Made by a program: the position numbers and the translations under genes. This document shows positions 8,570 to 54,031 of a stretch of DNA of 64,000 bases, in pieces (the stretch's first letter is position 1; each line of letters starts with the position of its first letter). The notes beneath the pieces are model-generated. The model did not search any database. It was not told the origin of the DNA and worked only from the letters and a program-made list of their open reading frames with translations. The stretch is from Bacilli bacterium (GTDB lineage: Bacteria; Bacillota_I; Bacilli_A; RF39; UBA660): positions 8,144 to 72,143 of the forward strand of contig JAFWEE010000010.1 in assembly GCA_017515795.1 (NCBI GenBank), written 5' to 3'.

Positions 8570-9130
8570 ATGATTTGGATTATTGGCGGAATTGCCTTAT
8601 TAGTACTATTAGTACTATGGTTTATTGGAGTTGCAAACAAACTAGTTAGAAAGAAAGCTGAAGTAGATAATGCTTTTGCTGATATCGATGTTTATCTAAC
8701 TAAGAGATTTGATTTAATTCCAAATTTAGTTAACACTGTTAAAGGTTATACTAAACATGAAAAAGAAACATTTGAAGATGTTGTTAATGCTAGATCTAAA
8801 GGATTAAGTGCACAAACAATTAATGAAAAAGTTGAAGCTGACGAACAATTAACTTCTGCTTTAGGTAGATTAATTGCTGTTGCTGAAGCTTATCCAGAAT
8901 TAAAAGCTGATACAAGTTTTATTAAATTACAAGAATCTTTAAATGAAATCGAAACAGAATTAGTTGGAGCTAGAAGATATTATAATGCTGCTGTTAAAGC
9001 TTATAACATTTTAATTCATACTATTCCATCTAATATCGTTGCTTCTATTTTAGGATATAGAGATCTTAAGATGTATGAAGCTACTGAAGAACAAAGAAAA
9101 AATGTTAAAGTAGATTTTTCAGAAGAATAA
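8570..9130 (+). CDS. lemA: LemA family protein
   Basis: N-terminal TM helix followed by NAFADIDVYLTKRFDLIPNLVNTVKGY and ARRYYNAAV motifs typical of LemA. Confidence 0.9.
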   Translation: MIWIIGGIALLVLLVLWFIGVANKLVRKKAEVDNAFADIDVYLTKRFDLIPNLVNTVKGYTKHEKETFEDVVNARSKGLSAQTINEKVEADEQLTSALGRLIAVAEAYPELKADTSFIKLQESLNEIETELVGARRYYNAAVKAYNILIHTIPSNIVASILGYRDLKMYEATEEQRKNVKVDFSEE

Positions 9131-9149
9131 TTATAGAAAGGAAAAGGAT

Positions 9150-10901
9150 ATGAAAAAGAAATTATTAATTTTTGTATCTTTTTTTCTTTTGCTTATACCA
9201 TTTACTGCTAAGGCATCAATCGATGGATTTACAATAACTAATTATGATGTAAATATCATAGTAAGTGAAAAAAACACTTTGGATATTACTGAAAAAATAA
9301 CTGTTGTATATGATCAATTATATAAACATGGAATTATTAGAGAAATACCATTAAAGTATAAATATAGTGGAACTGTTAATGGTAAAGAAGTAACAGTAAG
9401 ACAAAGACCTAAGATTAAAAATGTAACTGTTGATTATGACTATAGTAAATCAAAAGAAGAAGAGAATTTAAATTTAAAAATTGGAAAATCTTATGAATAC
9501 TGTGAAGTAGGTAAAGAATATACTTATACAATTAAATATACATATGATTTTGGTGATGATAATATTGAAGACTATGATATGGTATATTTTAATATTATAG
9601 GTACTGATTGGACTGCTAAAATAGAAAATGTATCATTTTCTATTACTATGCCAAAAGACTTTGATAGTAACAAAATAAACTTTACTACAGGTTATTATGG
9701 TAATGCTTATAATAAAGCAGCTAATTATACTGTAGAAGGTAATACTATTAAAGGATATCTAGAAGAAAAGTTTGATGGTGTTGCTCTTAATGAAAGAGAA
9801 GGCTTAACAGTTAAAATAGAACTTCCAGAAGGATATTTTACTCATGAAAGAAAGAATATAGACTTAACTTTACCAATATTACTTGGATCTATTTCTTTAA
9901 TGCTTTTAGCATTATTAAATGGATTTAGAATATTTATTAAGAATGGTTTAAGAAGAAAAACTGTATCTGTAGTTCAATATAGTGCTCCTGATGGAATGGA
10001 TCCTGCTATGTGTGGATACATATATAATGGATATGCTAAAGGAGATCATATAGTATCTTTAATAACTTATTTAGCTACTAAAGGATATTTAAAAATAATA
10101 GATGATAAAGGTAGTAAGTTTAAATTACAATACTTAAAACCATTAGATGGTAATGAACCAAATTATATAGTTACAACTTATAATGGTTTATTTAAGAAAG
10201 CTAATGAAGAAGGTATAGTAACTAAGAAGGATTTAACTAATAAATTCTATACTTCATTAAATAAAGCTATATCTCAATTAACTAAATCAAGAAAGTTATA
10301 TGATCCAAAAAGAGATGGTGTTATAGCTTATAGTATATTCTTATTAATAATATCTTTTATGTGTTCATTTTTACCTGCATTCTTTACTTATAGAGCTACT
10401 TTATTTTATAGACCATTATTAATAGTATTTATATTAACTATAGTAGTTAGTGCAATATCTTATATAATATTTGCAGCATTAAGTAAGAAAAGAACAGAAG
10501 ATGAAGAAAAAGTGTATGCTAATGTAGCAGGCTTTAGAGAATTTATTGATAAAGTAGATGTTGAAAAAATAAATACTTTAGTAGAAGATGATCCAGAATT
10601 ATTCTATAAAGTACTTCCATATGCATATGTATTTAATTTAACTAATAAATGGATTAAGAAGTTTGAATCTATTAAGTTACAACCTCCAAAATGGTATGAA
10701 GGTAATATATATGATGTTAATACAGGAAAATTTAGATATGATAAATTAACTTCTGGATTAAATTCAGTAACTGCTTCAGCTAAAACAACTATGTCTAGTA
10801 GACCATATGAATCTTATTCATCTGGAGGACATGGTGGATTCTCTGGTGGTGGAGGCTTCTCTGGTGGAGGAGGAGGCGGTGGCGGTGGCCATAGCTGGTA
10901 A
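9150..10901 (+). CDS. DUF2207-type membrane protein with Gly-rich C-terminus
   Basis: Signal peptide, extracytoplasmic domain and several TM helices, ending in GGHGGFSGGGGFSGGGGGGGGGHSW. Sits in the usual position downstream of lemA. Confidence 0.8.
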   Translation: MKKKLLIFVSFFLLLIPFTAKASIDGFTITNYDVNIIVSEKNTLDITEKITVVYDQLYKHGIIREIPLKYKYSGTVNGKEVTVRQRPKIKNVTVDYDYSKSKEEENLNLKIGKSYEYCEVGKEYTYTIKYTYDFGDDNIEDYDMVYFNIIGTDWTAKIENVSFSITMPKDFDSNKINFTTGYYGNAYNKAANYTVEGNTIKGYLEEKFDGVALNEREGLTVKIELPEGYFTHERKNIDLTLPILLGSISLMLLALLNGFRIFIKNGLRRKTVSVVQYSAPDGMDPAMCGYIYNGYAKGDHIVSLITYLATKGYLKIIDDKGSKFKLQYLKPLDGNEPNYIVTTYNGLFKKANEEGIVTKKDLTNKFYTSLNKAISQLTKSRKLYDPKRDGVIAYSIFLLIISFMCSFLPAFFTYRATLFYRPLLIVFILTIVVSAISYIIFAALSKKRTEDEEKVYANVAGFREFIDKVDVEKINTLVEDDPELFYKVLPYAYVFNLTNKWIKKFESIKLQPPKWYEGNIYDVNTGKFRYDKLTSGLNSVTASAKTTMSSRPYESYSSGGHGGFSGGGGFSGGGGGGGGGHSW

Positions 10902-45586: not shown

Positions 45587-47581
45587 ATGAAAAAGAAAGA
45601 GACAGTTATTGATTCAGATATAAAAGAAGTTAAAACTGAAAAAGTAAAAGCTGAAAAAGTTCAAAAAACTAAGACTAAAAAAGAGAAAAAGAAACTAGTT
45701 ATTAATAAAAAATTAGTTACTATAATAGCTGCTGGAATAATTGTAGTAATCGCTTTATTATTATTTTTATTTAGAACTAAAGTTGATACTATAACTAAAG
45801 TTAAAAAAGTAGCTGCTACTAAATATTACAATGTTGAATGTTTAACTTCTACATGTGATTATATAGTTGCTGAAAAAGGTAATAAACTAGGAAAGTCAAA
45901 AGTTTATGTATATGATGCAAAAGGAAATGAAGTAGTATCATTTAAAGATAAATATAATGCTAAAAAAGATTATGTTTTATCTGTTTATGATGTATCTAAG
46001 AATTTTGTATTATTTAAAAAACTAAATAAATTAACTAGTAAAACTGAAGGATATATTATTGCTAATACAAAGGGTAAGAATAAATATTCTACAGGTAATA
46101 CTTTATATAAGATTAATGAAAATTTAATATCAGAATTTGATCAAAAAGATAATAAATATCTTATATTAAATAAAAAAGGTAAAGTAATTTATGATGGCGT
46201 AACTGATATTAATAAATATAATAATGGTAAAATAATAGCGTTAAATCTTAAAGGTAATGATGTATTAATTAATGAAAATGGAGAAAATATTCTTGGCGGA
46301 TATGTTGTTGCTAAAGAGGTTACTTCTTCTGATGGTGATACATTATATTTAATACTTTCTGATTCTAAAGCAAATGCATATTATTACTATAATGTTGATT
46401 CAAATAAAATAATGGGTGAATCATTTAATGGATATGTTTCTTCTGATAAAGAAGGAGAATTAATTATTACTAAGAGAATTAATAACTCTGATGTTAAATA
46501 TAGTTTAAGTCCATCTGGTAAACAAACTAAAATATCAGATGAAACTTTAAATGAAAGAATTACATTCATTAAAGAAAAAGTTGGTAGTGACTATGCTTTA
46601 TATGTATCATCTGTTATTAAAGCTGATCAAAGATATGTATTTGTTAATAAGATTAAAGATTCATCATTTGGTGTATATGATGTAGATAGTGGTAAATATA
46701 CTAAATTATATAATTATTCATCAGATGAAAAATCTACTTCTATATATAATTTAGAGTCAAATGATAATGGTATCTATATGCAAGCAACTTGTGCTAAAGG
46801 ATATTGTGATAAAACTATATTATATGTATATAATTTAGCTACTAATAAAGAATTATTTAAATCAGATGATGAAAGTAAAATACCTCAAAAATATGCTGAG
46901 TATACTGGTGGTTATAAAGTAATTAGATATTCTACTTCATCTGAAAATGAAAACTATAAAGGTAAATATGTTTTATATGATGAAAAAGGAAAAGAGTTAG
47001 TTAATTCATCAAATATTGTAGTTCCTCTAGGAGAAGAAAATCTATTTGGTGAAGTATCATCTAGTAGAGCATTAATACTTTATTCTACAAAAGAAAAAAG
47101 AGTTTTAAATTCTGATAACTATCTTGGAAGTAAAATTAATGTAAGTGGTACTTATATTTATAAATTCTCAGATTCTGAAACTACATACCTATATAATATA
47201 AAAGGCAAAAAGATGGTATCTATTAAGACTTCTGATGCAAGACTTATATATTCTGATGAAACTATAGTATATATCTTAAATGGTAAGATTAATATTATTG
47301 ATCCTACTACAGGAAGAGTTAGAAAATATAGATTAAAATCTGAAGAAAGAATTAATGATATCTCTGGAGAAACAATTGCTCCTTATAGAAACTCTTTATA
47401 TATTAATAATCCTGCTAAAAAATATGTTAAAGTTGTTAATGTAAAAGGTAGAACTATTAAGAAAATAAAGAAAGCTGAAATTAAATCAGTTGTTAAAAAT
47501 GAAAAATCTAATAACGTTATTATAATTGTAAGAAATATTAAGAATAATAATAACTTATATGGATTATATATAGCAAAATAA
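45587..47581 (+). CDS. hypothetical membrane-anchored protein with repeated beta-strand (KWG-like) units
   Basis: 664 aa with a Lys-rich N-terminus and one TM helix. Recurring Y-x-Y-D/N-x-KGK-x-V/L units (VYVYDAKGNEV, YLILNKKGKVI, YVLYDEKGKEL, YLYNIKGKKM). Confidence 0.65.
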   Translation: MKKKETVIDSDIKEVKTEKVKAEKVQKTKTKKEKKKLVINKKLVTIIAAGIIVVIALLLFLFRTKVDTITKVKKVAATKYYNVECLTSTCDYIVAEKGNKLGKSKVYVYDAKGNEVVSFKDKYNAKKDYVLSVYDVSKNFVLFKKLNKLTSKTEGYIIANTKGKNKYSTGNTLYKINENLISEFDQKDNKYLILNKKGKVIYDGVTDINKYNNGKIIALNLKGNDVLINENGENILGGYVVAKEVTSSDGDTLYLILSDSKANAYYYYNVDSNKIMGESFNGYVSSDKEGELIITKRINNSDVKYSLSPSGKQTKISDETLNERITFIKEKVGSDYALYVSSVIKADQRYVFVNKIKDSSFGVYDVDSGKYTKLYNYSSDEKSTSIYNLESNDNGIYMQATCAKGYCDKTILYVYNLATNKELFKSDDESKIPQKYAEYTGGYKVIRYSTSSENENYKGKYVLYDEKGKELVNSSNIVVPLGEENLFGEVSSSRALILYSTKEKRVLNSDNYLGSKINVSGTYIYKFSDSETTYLYNIKGKKMVSIKTSDARLIYSDETIVYILNGKINIIDPTTGRVRKYRLKSEERINDISGETIAPYRNSLYINNPAKKYVKVVNVKGRTIKKIKKAEIKSVVKNEKSNNVIIIVRNIKNNNNLYGLYIAK

Positions 47582-47620: not shown

Positions 47621-47658
47621 TCAAATAAAGTATAATAATTTTTAGGATGGTGATAAAC

Positions 47659-48942
47659 ATGAGAAGTCTTTTACCTGCAGATACATATGTAGTAATTAAC
47701 AAAACAATTTTAAATGACTCTGATAGAAAAGTCTTAACTATGCTTTATCAACCAATAATAGGTAGTATTAGTACTAATTTATATAATACACTTTGTTTAA
47801 ATCTAGATAAAAATGAATTTATGAGTGATGAATTTACTCATCATTCTTTAATGGTAAATAATAAGATTTCTTTAGAAGACATTTTATCTGCTAGAGAAAA
47901 ATTAGAGGGTATAGGTTTACTTAAAACATTTGTAAAAGAAAAAGAAGATTCTAATTCATATGTATATGAATTATATTCACCATTAAGTGCTTCAGAATTC
48001 TTTGCTCATCCAATATTAAACATTGTTTTATATAATAATGTAGGAAAAAAAGAATATGAAAGATTAGTATTATATTTTAAAATTCCTAGAGTAAATCTAA
48101 ATGGATATGAAGATATAACTAAATCATTTAATGATGTATTCTCATCTGTTCCATCTTCATCATTTGTTAATAATATAGTAGATATAAAAGAAATCTCTAA
48201 AGTAGGTATATGTTTAAATTATAGTTTTGATTATGATATGCTTATTACTTCATTTCCTAAGGAAACTATTAATGAAAAAACATTTACTAAAGAGAATAAA
48301 GAACTTATAGAGAATTTATCTTATATATATAACTTAGATACTTTAGAAATAAAAGATCTAATAATTAATTCATTAAATGATAGATTAATGATTGATAAAG
48401 TAGAATTAAGAAAGAATGCTAGAAACTATTATCAATATCAAAACAATGGAAAATTACCAACTCTTATATATCAAAATCAACCTGAATATTTAAGAAGTCC
48501 TGTTGGTAAAGATAGTAAAAGAGCTAAAATGATATATACATTTGAAACTGTATCTCCATATAATTTCTTAAAAGGAAAATATAATGGAAGTAAACCAACA
48601 TCTAGAGATTTAAAATTAATAGTGGACTTAATGGTTGATGTAGGACTTAAACCAGGAGTAGTAAATGTACTTATTGATTATGCTTTAAGAGTAAATAATA
48701 ATAAATTAAATAAAAACTTTATAGAGACAATAGCAGGTCAATGGAAAAGACTAAATATTGAGACTGCTGAGGGCGCTATGAATAGGGCATCAAAAGAGAG
48801 TAAAAATAAAAAAGTTAAAGATACTATTTATAAAAAGAAAGATGTTACTCTTCCTGAATGGTTTGATAAAGAAAATACTAAAGAAGAAATATCAAAAGAA
48901 GAAGAAGATGAAGTTAAAAATCTATTAAAAGATTTTTCATAG
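47659..48942 (+). CDS. dnaB: replication initiation/membrane attachment protein (Bacillus DnaB-type helicase co-loader, DnaD-like domains)
   Basis: N-terminal LLPADTYVVINKTILNDSDRKVLTMLYQPIIG resembles Bacillus DnaB. Lies directly upstream of dnaI. The ATG at 47659 follows GGTGA. Confidence 0.75.
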   Translation: MRSLLPADTYVVINKTILNDSDRKVLTMLYQPIIGSISTNLYNTLCLNLDKNEFMSDEFTHHSLMVNNKISLEDILSAREKLEGIGLLKTFVKEKEDSNSYVYELYSPLSASEFFAHPILNIVLYNNVGKKEYERLVLYFKIPRVNLNGYEDITKSFNDVFSSVPSSSFVNNIVDIKEISKVGICLNYSFDYDMLITSFPKETINEKTFTKENKELIENLSYIYNLDTLEIKDLIINSLNDRLMIDKVELRKNARNYYQYQNNGKLPTLIYQNQPEYLRSPVGKDSKRAKMIYTFETVSPYNFLKGKYNGSKPTSRDLKLIVDLMVDVGLKPGVVNVLIDYALRVNNNKLNKNFIETIAGQWKRLNIETAEGAMNRASKESKNKKVKDTIYKKKDVTLPEWFDKENTKEEISKEEEDEVKNLLKDFS

Positions 48943-48951
48943 AGGTATAAA

Positions 48952-49857
48952 ATGAAAGATATTAATAAGATGAATATAAAAACTGGTAAAATTAATCTAG
49001 AAGCAGAGTATTTAAAAGCTAAAAAAGATCCTAATTTTATTAAAATAATAACTAGTTTAGATTTAGATGATAAAGAATTAATGAAATATACATCTAAATT
49101 AATGCAATGTGCTAAAGAACTAGATAATTATGGAGATAAAAGTGATAAATCATTTTCTAATAATGAAATACCTGGATTTATACTTACTCCTTATTTAGTA
49201 GATGGAGTACTTAATTTTAAATATGTAGCATGTAAAGAAAAAGAAGAAGAATTAGAAAATGCAGAATATATAAAAAATGGATATAGATTTGAAGTTTCTA
49301 AAGATATTAGAAATGCTAAAATGAAAGATATATATACTGATGATAAGAATAGAGTACCTCTTATTAAATGGGTTACTTCTTTTATAAAAGATTATAAATC
49401 AGGTAAAAAAGTTAAAGGTTTATATTTAAGTGGTAACTTTGGTTCTGGTAAATCATATATAGTATCTGCAATGCTAAATGAACTTGTTAAAGATGGTTAT
49501 AAGGCTGCTATGATATATTATCCTGAGTTCTTAAGAATACTTAAATCATCATTTAAAACAGACTTTGATGAAGAATATGATTATGCTAGAAAAGTAGATT
49601 TATTACTATTAGATGATATAGGAGCAGAAAATATTACTTCTTGGTCTAGAGATGAAATATTAGGTCCTATTCTTCAATATAGAATGGATAATAATTTACC
49701 TACATTTTTTACATCAAATTTAGATTTAAAAGAATTAGAAGTTCATTTATCAGAAAGTAAAAATGAAGTAGATAAATTAAAAGCTAAAAGAATAATAGAA
49801 AGAATTAAATATTTAACTGAAGACTTAACTTTAATAAGTGAAAACAAAAGAAAATAA
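48952..49857 (+). CDS. dnaI: primosomal helicase loader DnaI (AAA+)
   Basis: Walker A GNFGSGKSY and Walker B LLLLDDIGAE, plus an N-terminal DnaI-type domain. Confidence 0.85.
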   Translation: MKDINKMNIKTGKINLEAEYLKAKKDPNFIKIITSLDLDDKELMKYTSKLMQCAKELDNYGDKSDKSFSNNEIPGFILTPYLVDGVLNFKYVACKEKEEELENAEYIKNGYRFEVSKDIRNAKMKDIYTDDKNRVPLIKWVTSFIKDYKSGKKVKGLYLSGNFGSGKSYIVSAMLNELVKDGYKAAMIYYPEFLRILKSSFKTDFDEEYDYARKVDLLLLDDIGAENITSWSRDEILGPILQYRMDNNLPTFFTSNLDLKELEVHLSESKNEVDKLKAKRIIERIKYLTEDLTLISENKRK

Positions 49858-49883
49858 AGATATATATAATATATCTTTTTTTT
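49856..49883 (+). terminator. rho-independent terminator after dnaI
   Basis: AAAGATATAT-ATA-ATATATCTTT followed by a T-run. Confidence 0.5.
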
Positions 49884-49910
49884 GACATTTTTATTATCTT
49901 ATAGTATATT
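49882..49910 (+). promoter_or_regulatory. sigma-A type promoter of the two-paralog operon
   Basis: TTGACA (49882..49887), a 17-nt spacer, then TATATT (49905..49910). Confidence 0.5.
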
Positions 49911-49939
49911 ATTTTTAATTTTTATTAAGGGGGATATTT

Positions 49940-50992
49940 ATGAATCATTTAAAAAAGCTTCTTGATATATTAAAAAGAGAAAGAGTTAATGAAGCTATAT
50001 ATAAAAAATGTTCTGAATATGTTGATGAATTAGATGATGATGATTTATATGTTGGTAAATTACATTCATATGTTAAAGCATTAATAGTAGATGATTTCTT
50101 AAAATTATCTGAGAAAGGCCAAAAAGATACATTATCTCTTTTATCATGCGGTTTTATTGATTCAAAGTATGTATGTATTGCTATTAGAAATATAAATATG
50201 CTATTTGTTGATAGTGGTTCATTAATGTATCCTCCAAGAAGAAGTCTTTTAAGAGGATTAGAACAATATAAAGATGATCCAGTATTAGATGAAGATTTAA
50301 TATCTAATGATGAATTAATTAAGAAAATAATATGTAAGAGAAATCATATATATCCAATAGATGATATAGAAAAAGGTAAATATAGTTTAATACATAATTA
50401 TAGATTAGATGAAAGTGAAATTTCAGAGATTAAAAAGGTTACATATATAACAGATATTCTTATAAGAAGAGTTCATGAATTATATGATGAAGACCAAGGA
50501 GAATTTAATAAAACTGTATGTAATTATGATGCTATAGAAGATGAAGCAATAAGAAAACTAATACCTCATACATATAGAAAGAATCCTCCTGTACAAGTAT
50601 TATTAAGTAATGGTTCTATAGTAGATTATTACAAAGGGGATATTAAAATAAAACCTTATAGAATGATGGACTTTATTAACTTAGTAAAACTAGTATATGT
50701 CAAAAAAAGACATGAAAGTTCTCTAATGGAAGAATATGAACCAGAAATATTAGAAGAACGTAATAGTGAAATGGCATATCTAGAAGAAAGATTATGGTTA
50801 ACAGAAAAAGAAAAAGAAAGATTAGAAGAATTAAGAGAATTATATTTATTTAAAAGACAAATAAAAGATATAGTAGATGAAGTATCTGAAGAAATAGATG
50901 GATTAGATCAAGTATATTCTAAGAGGATGAAGGATATGTCTAAACAAAAAGTAGATATGATGGATAGTCTAGTTCTAAAGTATGATTTATAG
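49940..50992 (+). CDS. hypothetical protein, paralog A of an unknown family
   Basis: 350 aa with an AAGGGGGA RBS and no TM helix. Shares YVKALIVDDF/YLKAFLIDKF, NYRL-x-E-I-x-IK, CNYD-I-E-IR/K-L-PHT and G-IV-YYKGDI blocks with the next gene. Confidence 0.7.
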   Translation: MNHLKKLLDILKRERVNEAIYKKCSEYVDELDDDDLYVGKLHSYVKALIVDDFLKLSEKGQKDTLSLLSCGFIDSKYVCIAIRNINMLFVDSGSLMYPPRRSLLRGLEQYKDDPVLDEDLISNDELIKKIICKRNHIYPIDDIEKGKYSLIHNYRLDESEISEIKKVTYITDILIRRVHELYDEDQGEFNKTVCNYDAIEDEAIRKLIPHTYRKNPPVQVLLSNGSIVDYYKGDIKIKPYRMMDFINLVKLVYVKKRHESSLMEEYEPEILEERNSEMAYLEERLWLTEKEKERLEELRELYLFKRQIKDIVDEVSEEIDGLDQVYSKRMKDMSKQKVDMMDSLVLKYDL

Positions 50993-51001
50993 GAGTTATT
51001 T

Positions 51002-52021
51002 ATGAATAAATTAAGAGTATTTTATAATTTATTAAATAGTAGATTAATAACAGATAGTATGATTGAATATCATATAGAGCACTCTGATTCTTTAAAAGCA
51101 AAATGGAAAGATGAATCTGTATTTGTAAGATATCTAAAAGCTTTTTTAATAGATAAATTTAATACAGTGCCAGATGAAATAAAAGATCATCTTATAGAAG
51201 AATTACGTGATGGTATTGTTAATACCTATTTAGTAGAAACCTTTGTAGAAATTATAAGAGGAGAACAAGCTAATGTTAATGAATATATAGATGGTATAAC
51301 TCTTGGCGATTTTTCTGATTTATTAGTATATAAAGATGATGAAATATTTAAAAGATTATCTAGTAATAATGAATGGATTAGAGGTTTAACTAAAGAGAAT
51401 AACAATTTTATTTCTATAATAGAATTAGAAAATGGTAATTATTTTTTACCAGGTAATTATAGATTATCTAAAGATGAAATAAATACTATTAAGTGTTCTA
51501 AAATGTTAGCTCCTATAATAGGAATGGTTCATTCTAAATATGATGAAATGTGTTATGATGAAAATGGAGTATCAGAAGAAAGAACTATATGTAATTATGA
51601 TGTTATAAAAGAGGAAACTATTAAATCATTAGTACCTCATACTGATAAGAATAATCCTGATATAGAAATATTATTTAATGATGGAACTATAGTAAACTAT
51701 TATAAAGGTGATATACGTATACTTCCATTTAACTTTAAACAATTAGTAGAATATATTAAATTAATGTTTGTATATAATTATTATAATGGATCAAACAATC
51801 CGTTATTAGCATTCTATTTAGAAACAGAAGATGGAGTATCTTTAGATACTGATTTTGATGATATGAATCTAGAAGAAATAGAAATACTTTTAGGATACGC
51901 TATATCAATGGCTACAGATGTAGTTAGAAGTTTATCTCAAAGATATTCTGAAAGAATGATAGAACAATCAAAAGAAAAAGTTGCACATTTATTAAAATTA
52001 GCAAATAAATATAAATTATAA
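51002..52021 (+). CDS. hypothetical protein, paralog B of the same unknown family
   Basis: 339 aa with an AGGAG RBS, 9 nt after paralog A. Collinear similarity over the full length, including the C-terminal helical tail (SKRMKDMSKQKV / SERMIEQSKEKV). Confidence 0.7.
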   Translation: MNKLRVFYNLLNSRLITDSMIEYHIEHSDSLKAKWKDESVFVRYLKAFLIDKFNTVPDEIKDHLIEELRDGIVNTYLVETFVEIIRGEQANVNEYIDGITLGDFSDLLVYKDDEIFKRLSSNNEWIRGLTKENNNFISIIELENGNYFLPGNYRLSKDEINTIKCSKMLAPIIGMVHSKYDEMCYDENGVSEERTICNYDVIKEETIKSLVPHTDKNNPDIEILFNDGTIVNYYKGDIRILPFNFKQLVEYIKLMFVYNYYNGSNNPLLAFYLETEDGVSLDTDFDDMNLEEIEILLGYAISMATDVVRSLSQRYSERMIEQSKEKVAHLLKLANKYKL

Positions 52022-52026
52022 AACTA

Positions 52027-52055
52027 TTTACAAGTAAATATATTAGAGTTATAAT
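52027..52055 (+). promoter_or_regulatory. sigma-A type promoter of the thrS leader
   Basis: TTTACA (52027..52032), a 17-nt spacer, then TATAAT (52050..52055). Confidence 0.5.
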
Positions 52056-52061
52056 AATTTT

Positions 52062-52251
52062 GTAAATCGATGAAGAAAGACGAGATTTATATATTTGATT
52101 TATAGAGAGTTACCGGTTGGTGTAAGGTAATATGATATATATAAGTTACTACTTTCTAAGAGGATTAATAAATCCCGGCATAGCCGTTATATTAATTAAG
52201 TAAACAAAGGATGGTACCGCCTAAATAGGCTCCTTATACCATCCTTTTTTT
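52062..52251 (+). promoter_or_regulatory. T-box riboswitch leader (Thr specifier) with terminator/antiterminator
   Basis: AGAGA(G) bay and GGTTGGTGTAAGG distal-loop motif in stem I. ACU followed by A at 52148..52151 is the candidate specifier. T-box sequence AAAGGATGGTACCGCC. Terminator AAGGATGGTA (52207..52216) / TACCATCCTT (52237..52246) plus a T-run. Confidence 0.85.
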
Positions 52252-52270: not shown

Positions 52271-54031
52271 ATGATTAATATTAAAGAAGATGAACGTTTA
52301 AGTAAATTAAACCATTCATGTGCACATTTAATGGCACAAGCAGTAAAACATTTATATCCAAATGCTAAATTCTGGGTAGGACCTGTTATTGAAGATGGAT
52401 TCTATTATGATATTGATTTAGGAGATAAAGTTATTACTGATGAAGATATTGAAGCAATCTCTAAAGAAATGAAGAAATTAGCTAAAGATGGAAAAAGAAT
52501 CTATAGAGAAGAGATCTCTAAAGAAGAAGCATTAGAAAAGTTTAAAGATGATCCATACAAGATTGATCTTATTTCTAGAATGGATGAAGATAATACTGTA
52601 ATATCTTGTTATACACAAGGAGACTTTACTGATCTTTGTAGAGGACCTCATGTTGATTCAGTTAAAGAACTTAAGAACTTTAAACTTCTTAAATTTAGTG
52701 GTGCTTATTGGAAAGGTGATTCTAATAATAAAATGCTTCAAAGAATATATGGAGTTTGTTTTGATACTCCAGAAGCTTTAGAAGAACATTTAAAAGAATT
52801 AGAAGAAGCTAAAGAAAGAGATCATAGAAAAATAGGTAAAGATATGGAAATCTTTATGATGAGTGACTTAGTAGGTAGAGGACTTCCAATGTATTTACCA
52901 AATGGGTTTATTTTATGGAATGAACTAGAAAATTACATTAGAAACAAAGAAATTAGAAGAGGATATAAGCATGTTCAAACTCCACCACTTGGTAATGTAA
53001 ATCTATATAAAACTTCTGGTCACTTAGAACACTATAAAGATGCAATGTTTCCTATAATGCAAGTAGAAGATGAAGAATATGTTCTAAGACCAATGAACTG
53101 TCCTCATCATATGGTTATTTATGGAAATGATATACATTCTTATAGAGATTTACCACTTAGAATTGCTGAAATAGCAAGAGATTGTAGATATGAAACTTCT
53201 GGTTCATTAAAAGGTATTGAAAGAGTTAGAACATTCTGTCAAAATGATTCACATATATTCTGTACTCCAGATCAAATTGAATCTGAATTTAAAGATGTAG
53301 TTGATTTAATACTTGAAGTTTATAAAGAAATGAATATTACTGATTATAGATTTGAATTAGCTTTAAGAGACCCAGAAGATAAAGTCAAATTCCATCAAGA
53401 TGATGAAATGTGGGATAAAGCAGAAAATGCTTTAAGAAAGATACTTGATGATATTGGTGTACCATATGAAGAAAAAATAGGAGATGCTGCTTTCTATGGA
53501 CCAAAATTAGATGTTCAAGTTAAACCTGCTGTTGGTAATGAATTTAGTTTATCTACTTGTCAAATAGATTTTTGTTTACCAGCTAAATTTGATTTAACTT
53601 ATATTGATAAAGATGGTTCTAAGAAGACTCCAGTAGTTCTTCATAGAGCAGTATTTGGTTCAATTGATAGAACTATTGCATATTACTTAGAACAAACTAA
53701 AGGAATACTTCCTTTATGGCTTTCTCCAGTACAAGTAAATATAGTTCCTGTTAATATGGAATATCATGAAGTATATGCTAAAGAAGTATATAATGAATTA
53801 TTAAATAATGGTGTAAGATGTAAAGTTGATTTAAGAGATGAAAAGATGAATTATAAATTAAGAGAATCTTTTATTCATAAATATCCTATTACTTTAATCC
53901 TTGGAGATAAAGAAAAAGATAATGAAAATATCTCTTATAGAAGATATGGTTCTGAAGAGACAATTACTGCCTCAAAAGATGACTTTATAAAACTACTTTT
54001 AAATGAAATAAATAGCAAAAAAGTACTTTAA
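52271..54031 (+). CDS. thrS: threonine--tRNA ligase lacking the N-terminal TGS domain
   Basis: Begins directly with the editing-domain HSCAHLMAQAV motif. Class II motifs follow (RPMNCPHH, FCQNDSHIF, GPKLD...). The ATG at 52271 follows AGGAGG. Confidence 0.93.
   Translation: MINIKEDERLSKLNHSCAHLMAQAVKHLYPNAKFWVGPVIEDGFYYDIDLGDKVITDEDIEAISKEMKKLAKDGKRIYREEISKEEALEKFKDDPYKIDLISRMDEDNTVISCYTQGDFTDLCRGPHVDSVKELKNFKLLKFSGAYWKGDSNNKMLQRIYGVCFDTPEALEEHLKELEEAKERDHRKIGKDMEIFMMSDLVGRGLPMYLPNGFILWNELENYIRNKEIRRGYKHVQTPPLGNVNLYKTSGHLEHYKDAMFPIMQVEDEEYVLRPMNCPHHMVIYGNDIHSYRDLPLRIAEIARDCRYETSGSLKGIERVRTFCQNDSHIFCTPDQIESEFKDVVDLILEVYKEMNITDYRFELALRDPEDKVKFHQDDEMWDKAENALRKILDDIGVPYEEKIGDAAFYGPKLDVQVKPAVGNEFSLSTCQIDFCLPAKFDLTYIDKDGSKKTPVVLHRAVFGSIDRTIAYYLEQTKGILPLWLSPVQVNIVPVNMEYHEVYAKEVYNELLNNGVRCKVDLRDEKMNYKLRESFIHKYPITLILGDKEKDNENISYRRYGSEETITASKDDFIKLLLNEINSKKVL

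Follow-up and report, generated by a model that had tools for sequence, protein, structure and literature searches.

An undescribed, lineage-restricted protein family of the dnaI-thrS interval in uncultured Bacilli of gut and rumen

What is encoded by two adjacent genes that match no recognized family and lie between the helicase-loader gene dnaI and the threonyl-tRNA synthetase (ThrRS) gene thrS, and what might their products do there? The question is raised by a stretch of 64,000 nucleotides (nt) from a Bacilli bacterium (GCA_017515795.1, contig JAFWEE010000010.1, positions 8,144 to 72,143 of the forward strand), hereafter the window, in which an earlier note had pointed out two open reading frames (ORFs) of 350 and 339 amino acids (aa), here ORFs A and B; their coordinates and flanks (dnaI and thrS) are as claimed there, and both are on the + strand. 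Our answer, to which as a whole we give a probability of about 0.5, is that ORFs A and B are functional paralogs of an undescribed, narrow family; that this family is accessory to the helicase-loader operon is a mechanistic guess of low confidence. The two genes and their ribosome-binding sites (RBSs), the latter read from the sequence, are as follows.

49940..50992, + strand: ORF A, 350 aa, family member of the 'A-type' subclade
51002..52021, + strand: ORF B, 339 aa, family member of the 'B-type' subclade
49927..49934, + strand: RBS AAGGGGGA of ORF A
50991..50995, + strand: RBS AGGAG of ORF B, overlapping the stop codon of ORF A

ORFs A and B are separated by 9 nt and encode collinear paralogs with 28% identity over their full length (BLASTP, E 9e-36), as had been proposed, and every motif block quoted earlier was found in the alignment, namely YVKALIVDDF in A and YLKAFLIDKF in B, YKDD, GxYxLxxNYRL...EIxxIK, CNYDxI...PHT and G[ST]IV[DN]YYKGDI[KR]I. 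Both proteins are acidic (pI 5.2 for A and 4.8 for B; family median 4.9) and, again as claimed, neither has a transmembrane (TM) segment (maximum KD19 1.39 across both). The base composition (GC) of the pair is like that of the adjoining genes in DNA that is here 23% GC, and the exact sequence recurs across numerous metagenome runs from gut and bovine gut.

An exhaustive HMMER search with a four-sequence profile recovered 41 family clusters at 50% identity among 1.84 billion representatives, 36 of them encoding proteins of ~317-388 aa and the remainder shorter, probably partial. Exhaustive searching was needed, as word-based homologue searches with a single sequence and with the family alignment each returned only 2 proteins, and a motif-pattern scan of genome contigs gave 0 matches, the patterns being too specific and the full alignment too divergent. 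Scored with the family hidden Markov model (HMM), ORF A has an E value of 2.6e-97 and ORF B of 5.4e-116. ORFs A and B and 31 further members lack a consistent match in Pfam, NCBIfam, PHROGs and PADLOC, with only noise among the PHROGs, and zero PDB sequences match the family profile, which agrees with the earlier description of the family as unrecognized. The family is real, coherent, very small, undescribed and lineage-restricted, being confined to uncultured low-GC gut and rumen Bacilli. From a 33-sequence alignment and a 37-sequence realignment (ORF A numbering), near-universal residues are Y44, K46, Y154, E160, H179, Y182, D183, E184, C194, T211, N215, P216, G225, Y230, G233, D234, I235, R/K236, K250, L251, Y326, S/T327, M330 and a terminal K-Y-x-L. 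The strongest conservation falls mostly in the central region (E160, H179, Y182, D183, E184, C194, T211, N215, P216, Y230, G233, D234, R/K236 and K250), plus the extreme C terminus. All near-universal residues are kept in both window copies, and thus neither ORF looks degenerate.

Near-invariance of E160, H179, D183, E184, C194, N215, Y230, D234, R236 and K250 in both branches of the family would also suit a stand-alone enzyme or ligand-binding protein, in which conserved Glu, His, Asp and Cys of the central domain would provide a metal or catalytic site and the place after dnaI would be no more than a permissive core-genome slot for insertion. We consider this unlikely: no hydrolase, transferase or metal-binding family resembles it in sequence or fold, and several members deviate at H210 and C194.

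From the 33-sequence alignment, AlphaFold2 produced a model with pLDDT 88.4 and pTM 0.80, whereas 4 sequences only gave pLDDT 41 and an unusable model. The predicted chain is helical to about residue 135, continues as a mixed alpha/beta region (~136-241) and ends in four long C-terminal helices. A three-strand meander at residues 218-241 closes the alpha/beta region and bears the DGTIV-YY-GDIR motif, and among the C-terminal helices there is a variable segment (~266-290), which is longer in members P0017, P0021 and P0034 owing to highly acidic insertions. Foldseek comparison against PDB and BFVD (solved and viral structures) found nothing better than E 2, the top matches being SMC-type coiled coils with a TM score of ~0.1, which is noise. 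These analyses, of the kind proposed in the earlier note, give a confident model with no PDB or BFVD neighbour; within those two collections, the predicted fold is possibly one without a described relative.

Position had suggested another identity for the pair, that of very remote YtxC-like sporulation proteins. In Bacillus subtilis the gene order at this place is dnaB-dnaI-ytxB-ytxC-thrS; in a Paenibacillus contig (L058) ytxC lies directly upstream of thrS, so the pair does occupy the YtxC position, and the proteins are of roughly similar size (~290-340 aa). However, YtxC profiles (Pfam PF08812 and NCBIfam TIGR02834) matched neither A nor B at E<=1 and none of 33 members at E<=0.1. In hhalign comparisons with the family profile, which were used for all relation tests here, a YtxC alignment of 2 sequences only, phage G gp404 (Pfam YtxC E 1e-31, as positive control) and the Paenibacillus YtxC directly upstream of thrS, reached 0.39% probability over 14 columns. 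YtxC-like descent is thereby effectively refuted at the sequence-profile level, and the profile-profile comparisons yielded no confident match of the family to YtxC or to any other family tested.

The neighbourhood of the pair in the window comprises the following features.

47647..48942, + strand: dnaB-type replication initiation/helicase-loading gene (Firmicute DnaB), upstream flank; Pfam DnaB_2 E 2.3e-12
48952..49857, + strand: dnaI, AAA+ helicase loader, upstream flank; IstB_IS21/Bac_DnaA AAA+ Pfam matches
52061..52237, + strand: T-box leader of thrS, downstream edge of the slot; RF00230, E 8.5e-14, 67 bits, below the Rfam gathering score of 93
52271..54031, + strand: thrS, 586 aa from the ATG at 52271, downstream flank

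This arrangement is conserved across the genus. Searched with DnaI, species-representative genomes yielded 41 loci of uncultured Bacilli from gut and rumen, including Bacilli bacterium RGIG..., Clostridium sp. CAG:433 and uncultured Tenericutes UMGS855, and more loci came from exact-protein look-ups and a metagenome scan. Contigs of the window genus encode DnaI 88-95%, DnaB 86-91% and ThrS 81-91% identical to those of the window (dnaI orthologues of 88-95% identity in L001, L003, L004, L010-L012, L054, L059 and L060), and L002 is apparently from the window's own species (DnaI 99.6% identical). Family genes directly follow dnaB-dnaI in 12/12 further same-genus contigs with context, the Thr T-box comes immediately after them in all five contigs scanned (L001, L003, L004, L011 and L012), and the T-box or thrS lies downstream wherever a same-genus contig reaches that far. 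The co-occurrence that the earlier note proposed to test stands for the family, which is always found after dnaI in the window genus, but not for the pair, because both copies are not always present. Single genes, which that note would have counted against a maintained pair if scattered, do occur, though in a strictly conserved setting.

Such proximity to thrS might also point to a trans-acting partner of ThrRS. In the window genus thrS comes shortly after the family genes, and the encoded ThrRS of 586 aa starts at the editing domain and is therefore missing the N-terminal TGS domain, which the family protein would replace or stand in for; hhalign places residues 214-231 (F-I-F-DGTIV-YY-GD) on the first TGS hairpin (IxVxLPDGxxxxYxxG). 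That alignment spans 18 columns at 2.1% probability and is not significant, Pfam TGS matches none of 33 members, and Foldseek matches ThrRS 1nyq only at E 4.5, with TM 0.08. With the predicted three-strand meander and following long helix unlike a beta-grasp fold, the genes outside the T-box-controlled unit and the other family branch not near thrS, this explanation is very improbable.

Three candidate signals border the pair.

49851..49883, + strand: A/U-only hairpin with a 10-bp core stem, then U8; minimum free energy -8.2 kcal/mol, z -3.5 versus shuffles
49882..49910, + strand: sigma-70-like promoter TTGACA-17-TATATT; 11/12 consensus matches
52027..52055, + strand: promoter-like site TTTACA-17-TATAAT for the thrS leader

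The first two had been described as a terminator and a consensus-like promoter that set the pair apart as a self-contained operon. Both elements are at the site, but the hairpin was not called by a terminator scan that requires >=3 G-C pairs, and promoter-like matches in this AT-rich DNA are not commoner than chance (46 found versus 58 expected from shuffled sequence), so the promoter match taken alone is weak evidence. The hairpin after dnaI may be a weak intrinsic terminator or attenuator. L054 has an analogous hairpin after dnaI, and TTGACT-17-TATATT at the position equivalent to that of the window promoter-like site; no such hairpin is found where the gap is only ~20 nt (L001, L012, L059 and L060). 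A self-contained operon is true only of the window species and L054. Elsewhere the family gene starts ~20-35 nt past dnaI (L001, L003, L011, L012, L059 and L060), which leaves no space for a terminator plus promoter, and these short gaps in most species suggest co-transcription of the family gene with the dnaB-dnaI helicase-loader operon as the rule.

Copy number varies within the genus. Five same-genus species have one copy (L001, L003, L010 (= L008), L011 and L054), L060 apparently also has one, on a contig that ends 310 nt past the gene, and four species have two copies (the window with L002, L004, L012 and L059). A maximum-likelihood tree has two main groups; every dnaI-linked member falls in Group 2, where these members are spread over at least 7 deep subclades. 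ORF A clades with the second gene of L004 (L004b), and ORF B with P0004/L054 (48% identity). The pairs differ in makeup and order: A-type then B-type in the window, P0016-type then A-type in L004, and X-type (P0021/P0017) then Y-type (P0032) in L012 and L059, whose sister species keep X only (L011) or Y only (L010). The single-copy species and the mixed subclades and order argue that A and B are not an obligate heteromer; the earlier view of an old duplication whose two products are kept together, possibly as a heteromer, is not supported by these observations. Each copy can presumably work alone, a heteromer of A and B being optional, and the array appears to owe its origin to duplication within the locus and later differential loss.

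Group 1 members lie upstream of rpmE in three deep branches, or upstream of pgi. The rpmE-linked contig L053 carries a tandem pair (L053:2-640 and L053:725-1744), and the presence of tandem pairs in both the rpmE-linked and the dnaI-linked branches indicates that tandem duplication recurs independently. In the rpmE context, a weakly GDSL-lipase-like protein of 222-224 aa precedes the family gene (L005:5278-5946 and L051:702-1376) and sits between murA and rpmE, an interval that in B. subtilis contains rho. The occurrence of the family in at least three housekeeping contexts (dnaI, rpmE and pgi) is a further point for a stand-alone enzyme or ligand-binding protein, as is the occupation of the dnaI-thrS slot by unrelated genes in relatives.

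Comparison of the window with L002, in which the ORF A orthologue is 95% identical, gave a ratio of nonsynonymous to synonymous substitution rates (dN/dS) of 0.22 for ORF A, 0.22 for ORF B and 0.03 for DnaI, with dN of A and B ~10x that of DnaI. ORFs A and B are functional, under purifying selection and fast-evolving. A dN/dS of 0.22 combined with frequent duplication and loss would be unusual for a core enzyme, and this weighs further on the enzyme reading. Hypervariable allele swapping, considered as a source of the divergence, is unneeded, as the ~10x dN roughly predicts the 48% identity of the L054 B-type protein at 93% DnaI identity.

Divergence of this order might instead mark a conflict or defence module against phages or mobile elements, or a decoy target for phage inhibitors that act on the helicase loader: orthologues share only 24-48% identity, against 81-95% for the flanking DnaI and ThrS, copy number is 1-2 with mixed subclades, and the slot holds other genes in related lineages. 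Selection between near-identical strains is nonetheless purifying rather than diversifying, and its dN/dS of 0.22 alone approximately accounts for the 48% identity just given; the synteny is strict and vertical-looking in the same 12/12 further loci, and no PHROG matches. Against the PADLOC-DB 2.0 defence HMMs, A, B and P0002 are all without a match at E<=1. No homologue was found on phages or plasmids (tblastn against INPHARED and PLSDB) or on viral contigs (IMG/VR scan); with these results and their native base composition, ORFs A and B are not mobile. We regard a defence role as distinctly improbable.

More distant relatives, with 45-69% DnaI identity, show how variable the slot is: it holds RNB-domain proteins, longer RNB relatives, 215-aa orphans or nothing between dnaI and thrS. 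Replacement of one cassette by another next to the loader genes, which the earlier note had offered as an alternative, fits this picture. The RNB slot proteins are of ~500 aa (Pfam RNB E 1e-10 to 1e-19), their relatives of 600-890 aa. The ~500-aa RNB genes lie directly after dnaI at L016:7882-9444, L019:7991-9484, L021:7870-9453, L023:4648-6201 and L035:7907-9463, and the longer relatives follow dnaI at L013:7906-10281, L018:7928-10246, L022:6118-8796 and L033:7903-9741; the N-terminal halves of both have no Pfam family match. The 215-aa orphans are found at L015:7892-8536, L020:7845-8513 and, behind an 893-aa gene, L022:9062-9703, and their family comprises 65 homologous database clusters, most of them at least 75% identical. 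Orphan ORFs of 150-216 aa without a Pfam match end at or overlap the thrS start at L010:9335-9910, L011:9180-9827, L013:10548-11045, L018:10456-11076, L031:8144-8623 and L046:8111-8611; the one in L011 is downstream of the Thr T-box (9027-9207), and the window is without such an ORF.

Descent of the family from its neighbours or from other slot genes was examined with the same profile comparisons. Two RNB alignments gave 0.09% and 0.18% probability with no Pfam RNB (PF00773) match, and an origin from RNB slot proteins is rejected at these 0.1-0.2% probabilities. An origin by duplication of DnaB or DnaI is likewise rejected, the DnaB alignment giving 0.13% with no Pfam match to DnaB_2 (PF07261) or to a winged-helix DnaB/DnaD domain and the DnaI alignment 0.22% with no Pfam AAA+ match. 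The 215-aa slot family is invisible to the family HMMER search and reached 1-2% probability (E 0.03-0.06 over 35-40 columns, also after adding homologues), a similarity that is not significant; the shared order of motifs is suggestive, an unproven lead towards remote homology.

Elsewhere in the window, a 664-aa Lys-rich, single-TM repeat protein is encoded at 45587-47581, between rpe and dnaB, and has no real Pfam match, only PQQ_2 at E 0.12. In L054, an ORF of identical length stands in the same place (L054:3652-5643).

What, then, might A and B do? We return to the reading in which they are functional paralogs accessory to the helicase-loader operon. In its more specific form, the family protein would assist or regulate the DnaB/DnaI loading machinery as a non-essential partner, would oligomerize via its C-terminal helices and would use the conserved polar residues in its central region to bind its partner or a ligand; this is a low-confidence guess, and more probably wrong than right. 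Doubtful to a somewhat greater degree is the fullest version, in which A and B would be founding members of a new-fold family, a lineage-specific accessory or regulator of Firmicute DnaB-DnaI loading that is co-transcribed with the loader genes, duplicates and subfunctionalizes in the operon and replaces the RNB-type protein of sister lineages. Several observations weigh against a role in replication. The link is drawn from gene order only; in the window itself, the hairpin and promoter stand between dnaI and ORFs A and B; the second family branch is away from dnaI, upstream of rpmE or pgi; and the profile libraries, PDB and BFVD offered no domain, motif or structural neighbour indicating an activity.

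If the predicted structure holds, the family, and possibly its fold, would be without a described relative, fixed at a core-genome position beside helicase-loader genes in abundant uncultured rumen and gut bacteria. The dnaI-thrS interval of these reduced, AT-rich Bacilli turns over genes, its occupants including this family, RNB proteins, 215-aa orphans and T-box-controlled orphan ORFs. The family is tiny; DnaB, DnaI, the replicative helicase and ThrRS are candidate partners, and the model is fit to guide mutagenesis.

Among the closest known systems, YtxC shares with the family a position between dnaI and thrS, and both are soluble proteins of ~300 aa. The two differ in having no sequence or profile similarity and other conserved motifs, and YtxC is one conserved sporulation gene, whereas the family described here is present as 1-2 fast-evolving copies. 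The RNB slot proteins of UMGS855 and several rumen and gut metagenome-assembled genomes lie in the same slot after dnaI and on the same strand, but are unrelated, longer (500-890 aa) and equipped with a recognizable RNB domain. The 215-aa slot family (Clostridium sp. CAG:433-like; L015, L020 and L022) occupies the same slot and resembles the family in motifs over ~40 residues, sharing the order DNP ... [IV]V.Y..GDI ... TKL..[VI], but is 120 aa shorter. Finally, the orphan ORFs at the thrS start in L010 and L011 belong to another family (family HMM E ~1 on L010:9335-9910 and L011:9180-9827), although they share the neighbourhood and lineage and are likewise fast-evolving and lineage-restricted in a place where the slot content changes; they lie downstream of the T-box, as shown in L011, and would be controlled by it, whereas A and B lie upstream of the T-box, attached to the dnaB-dnaI operon.

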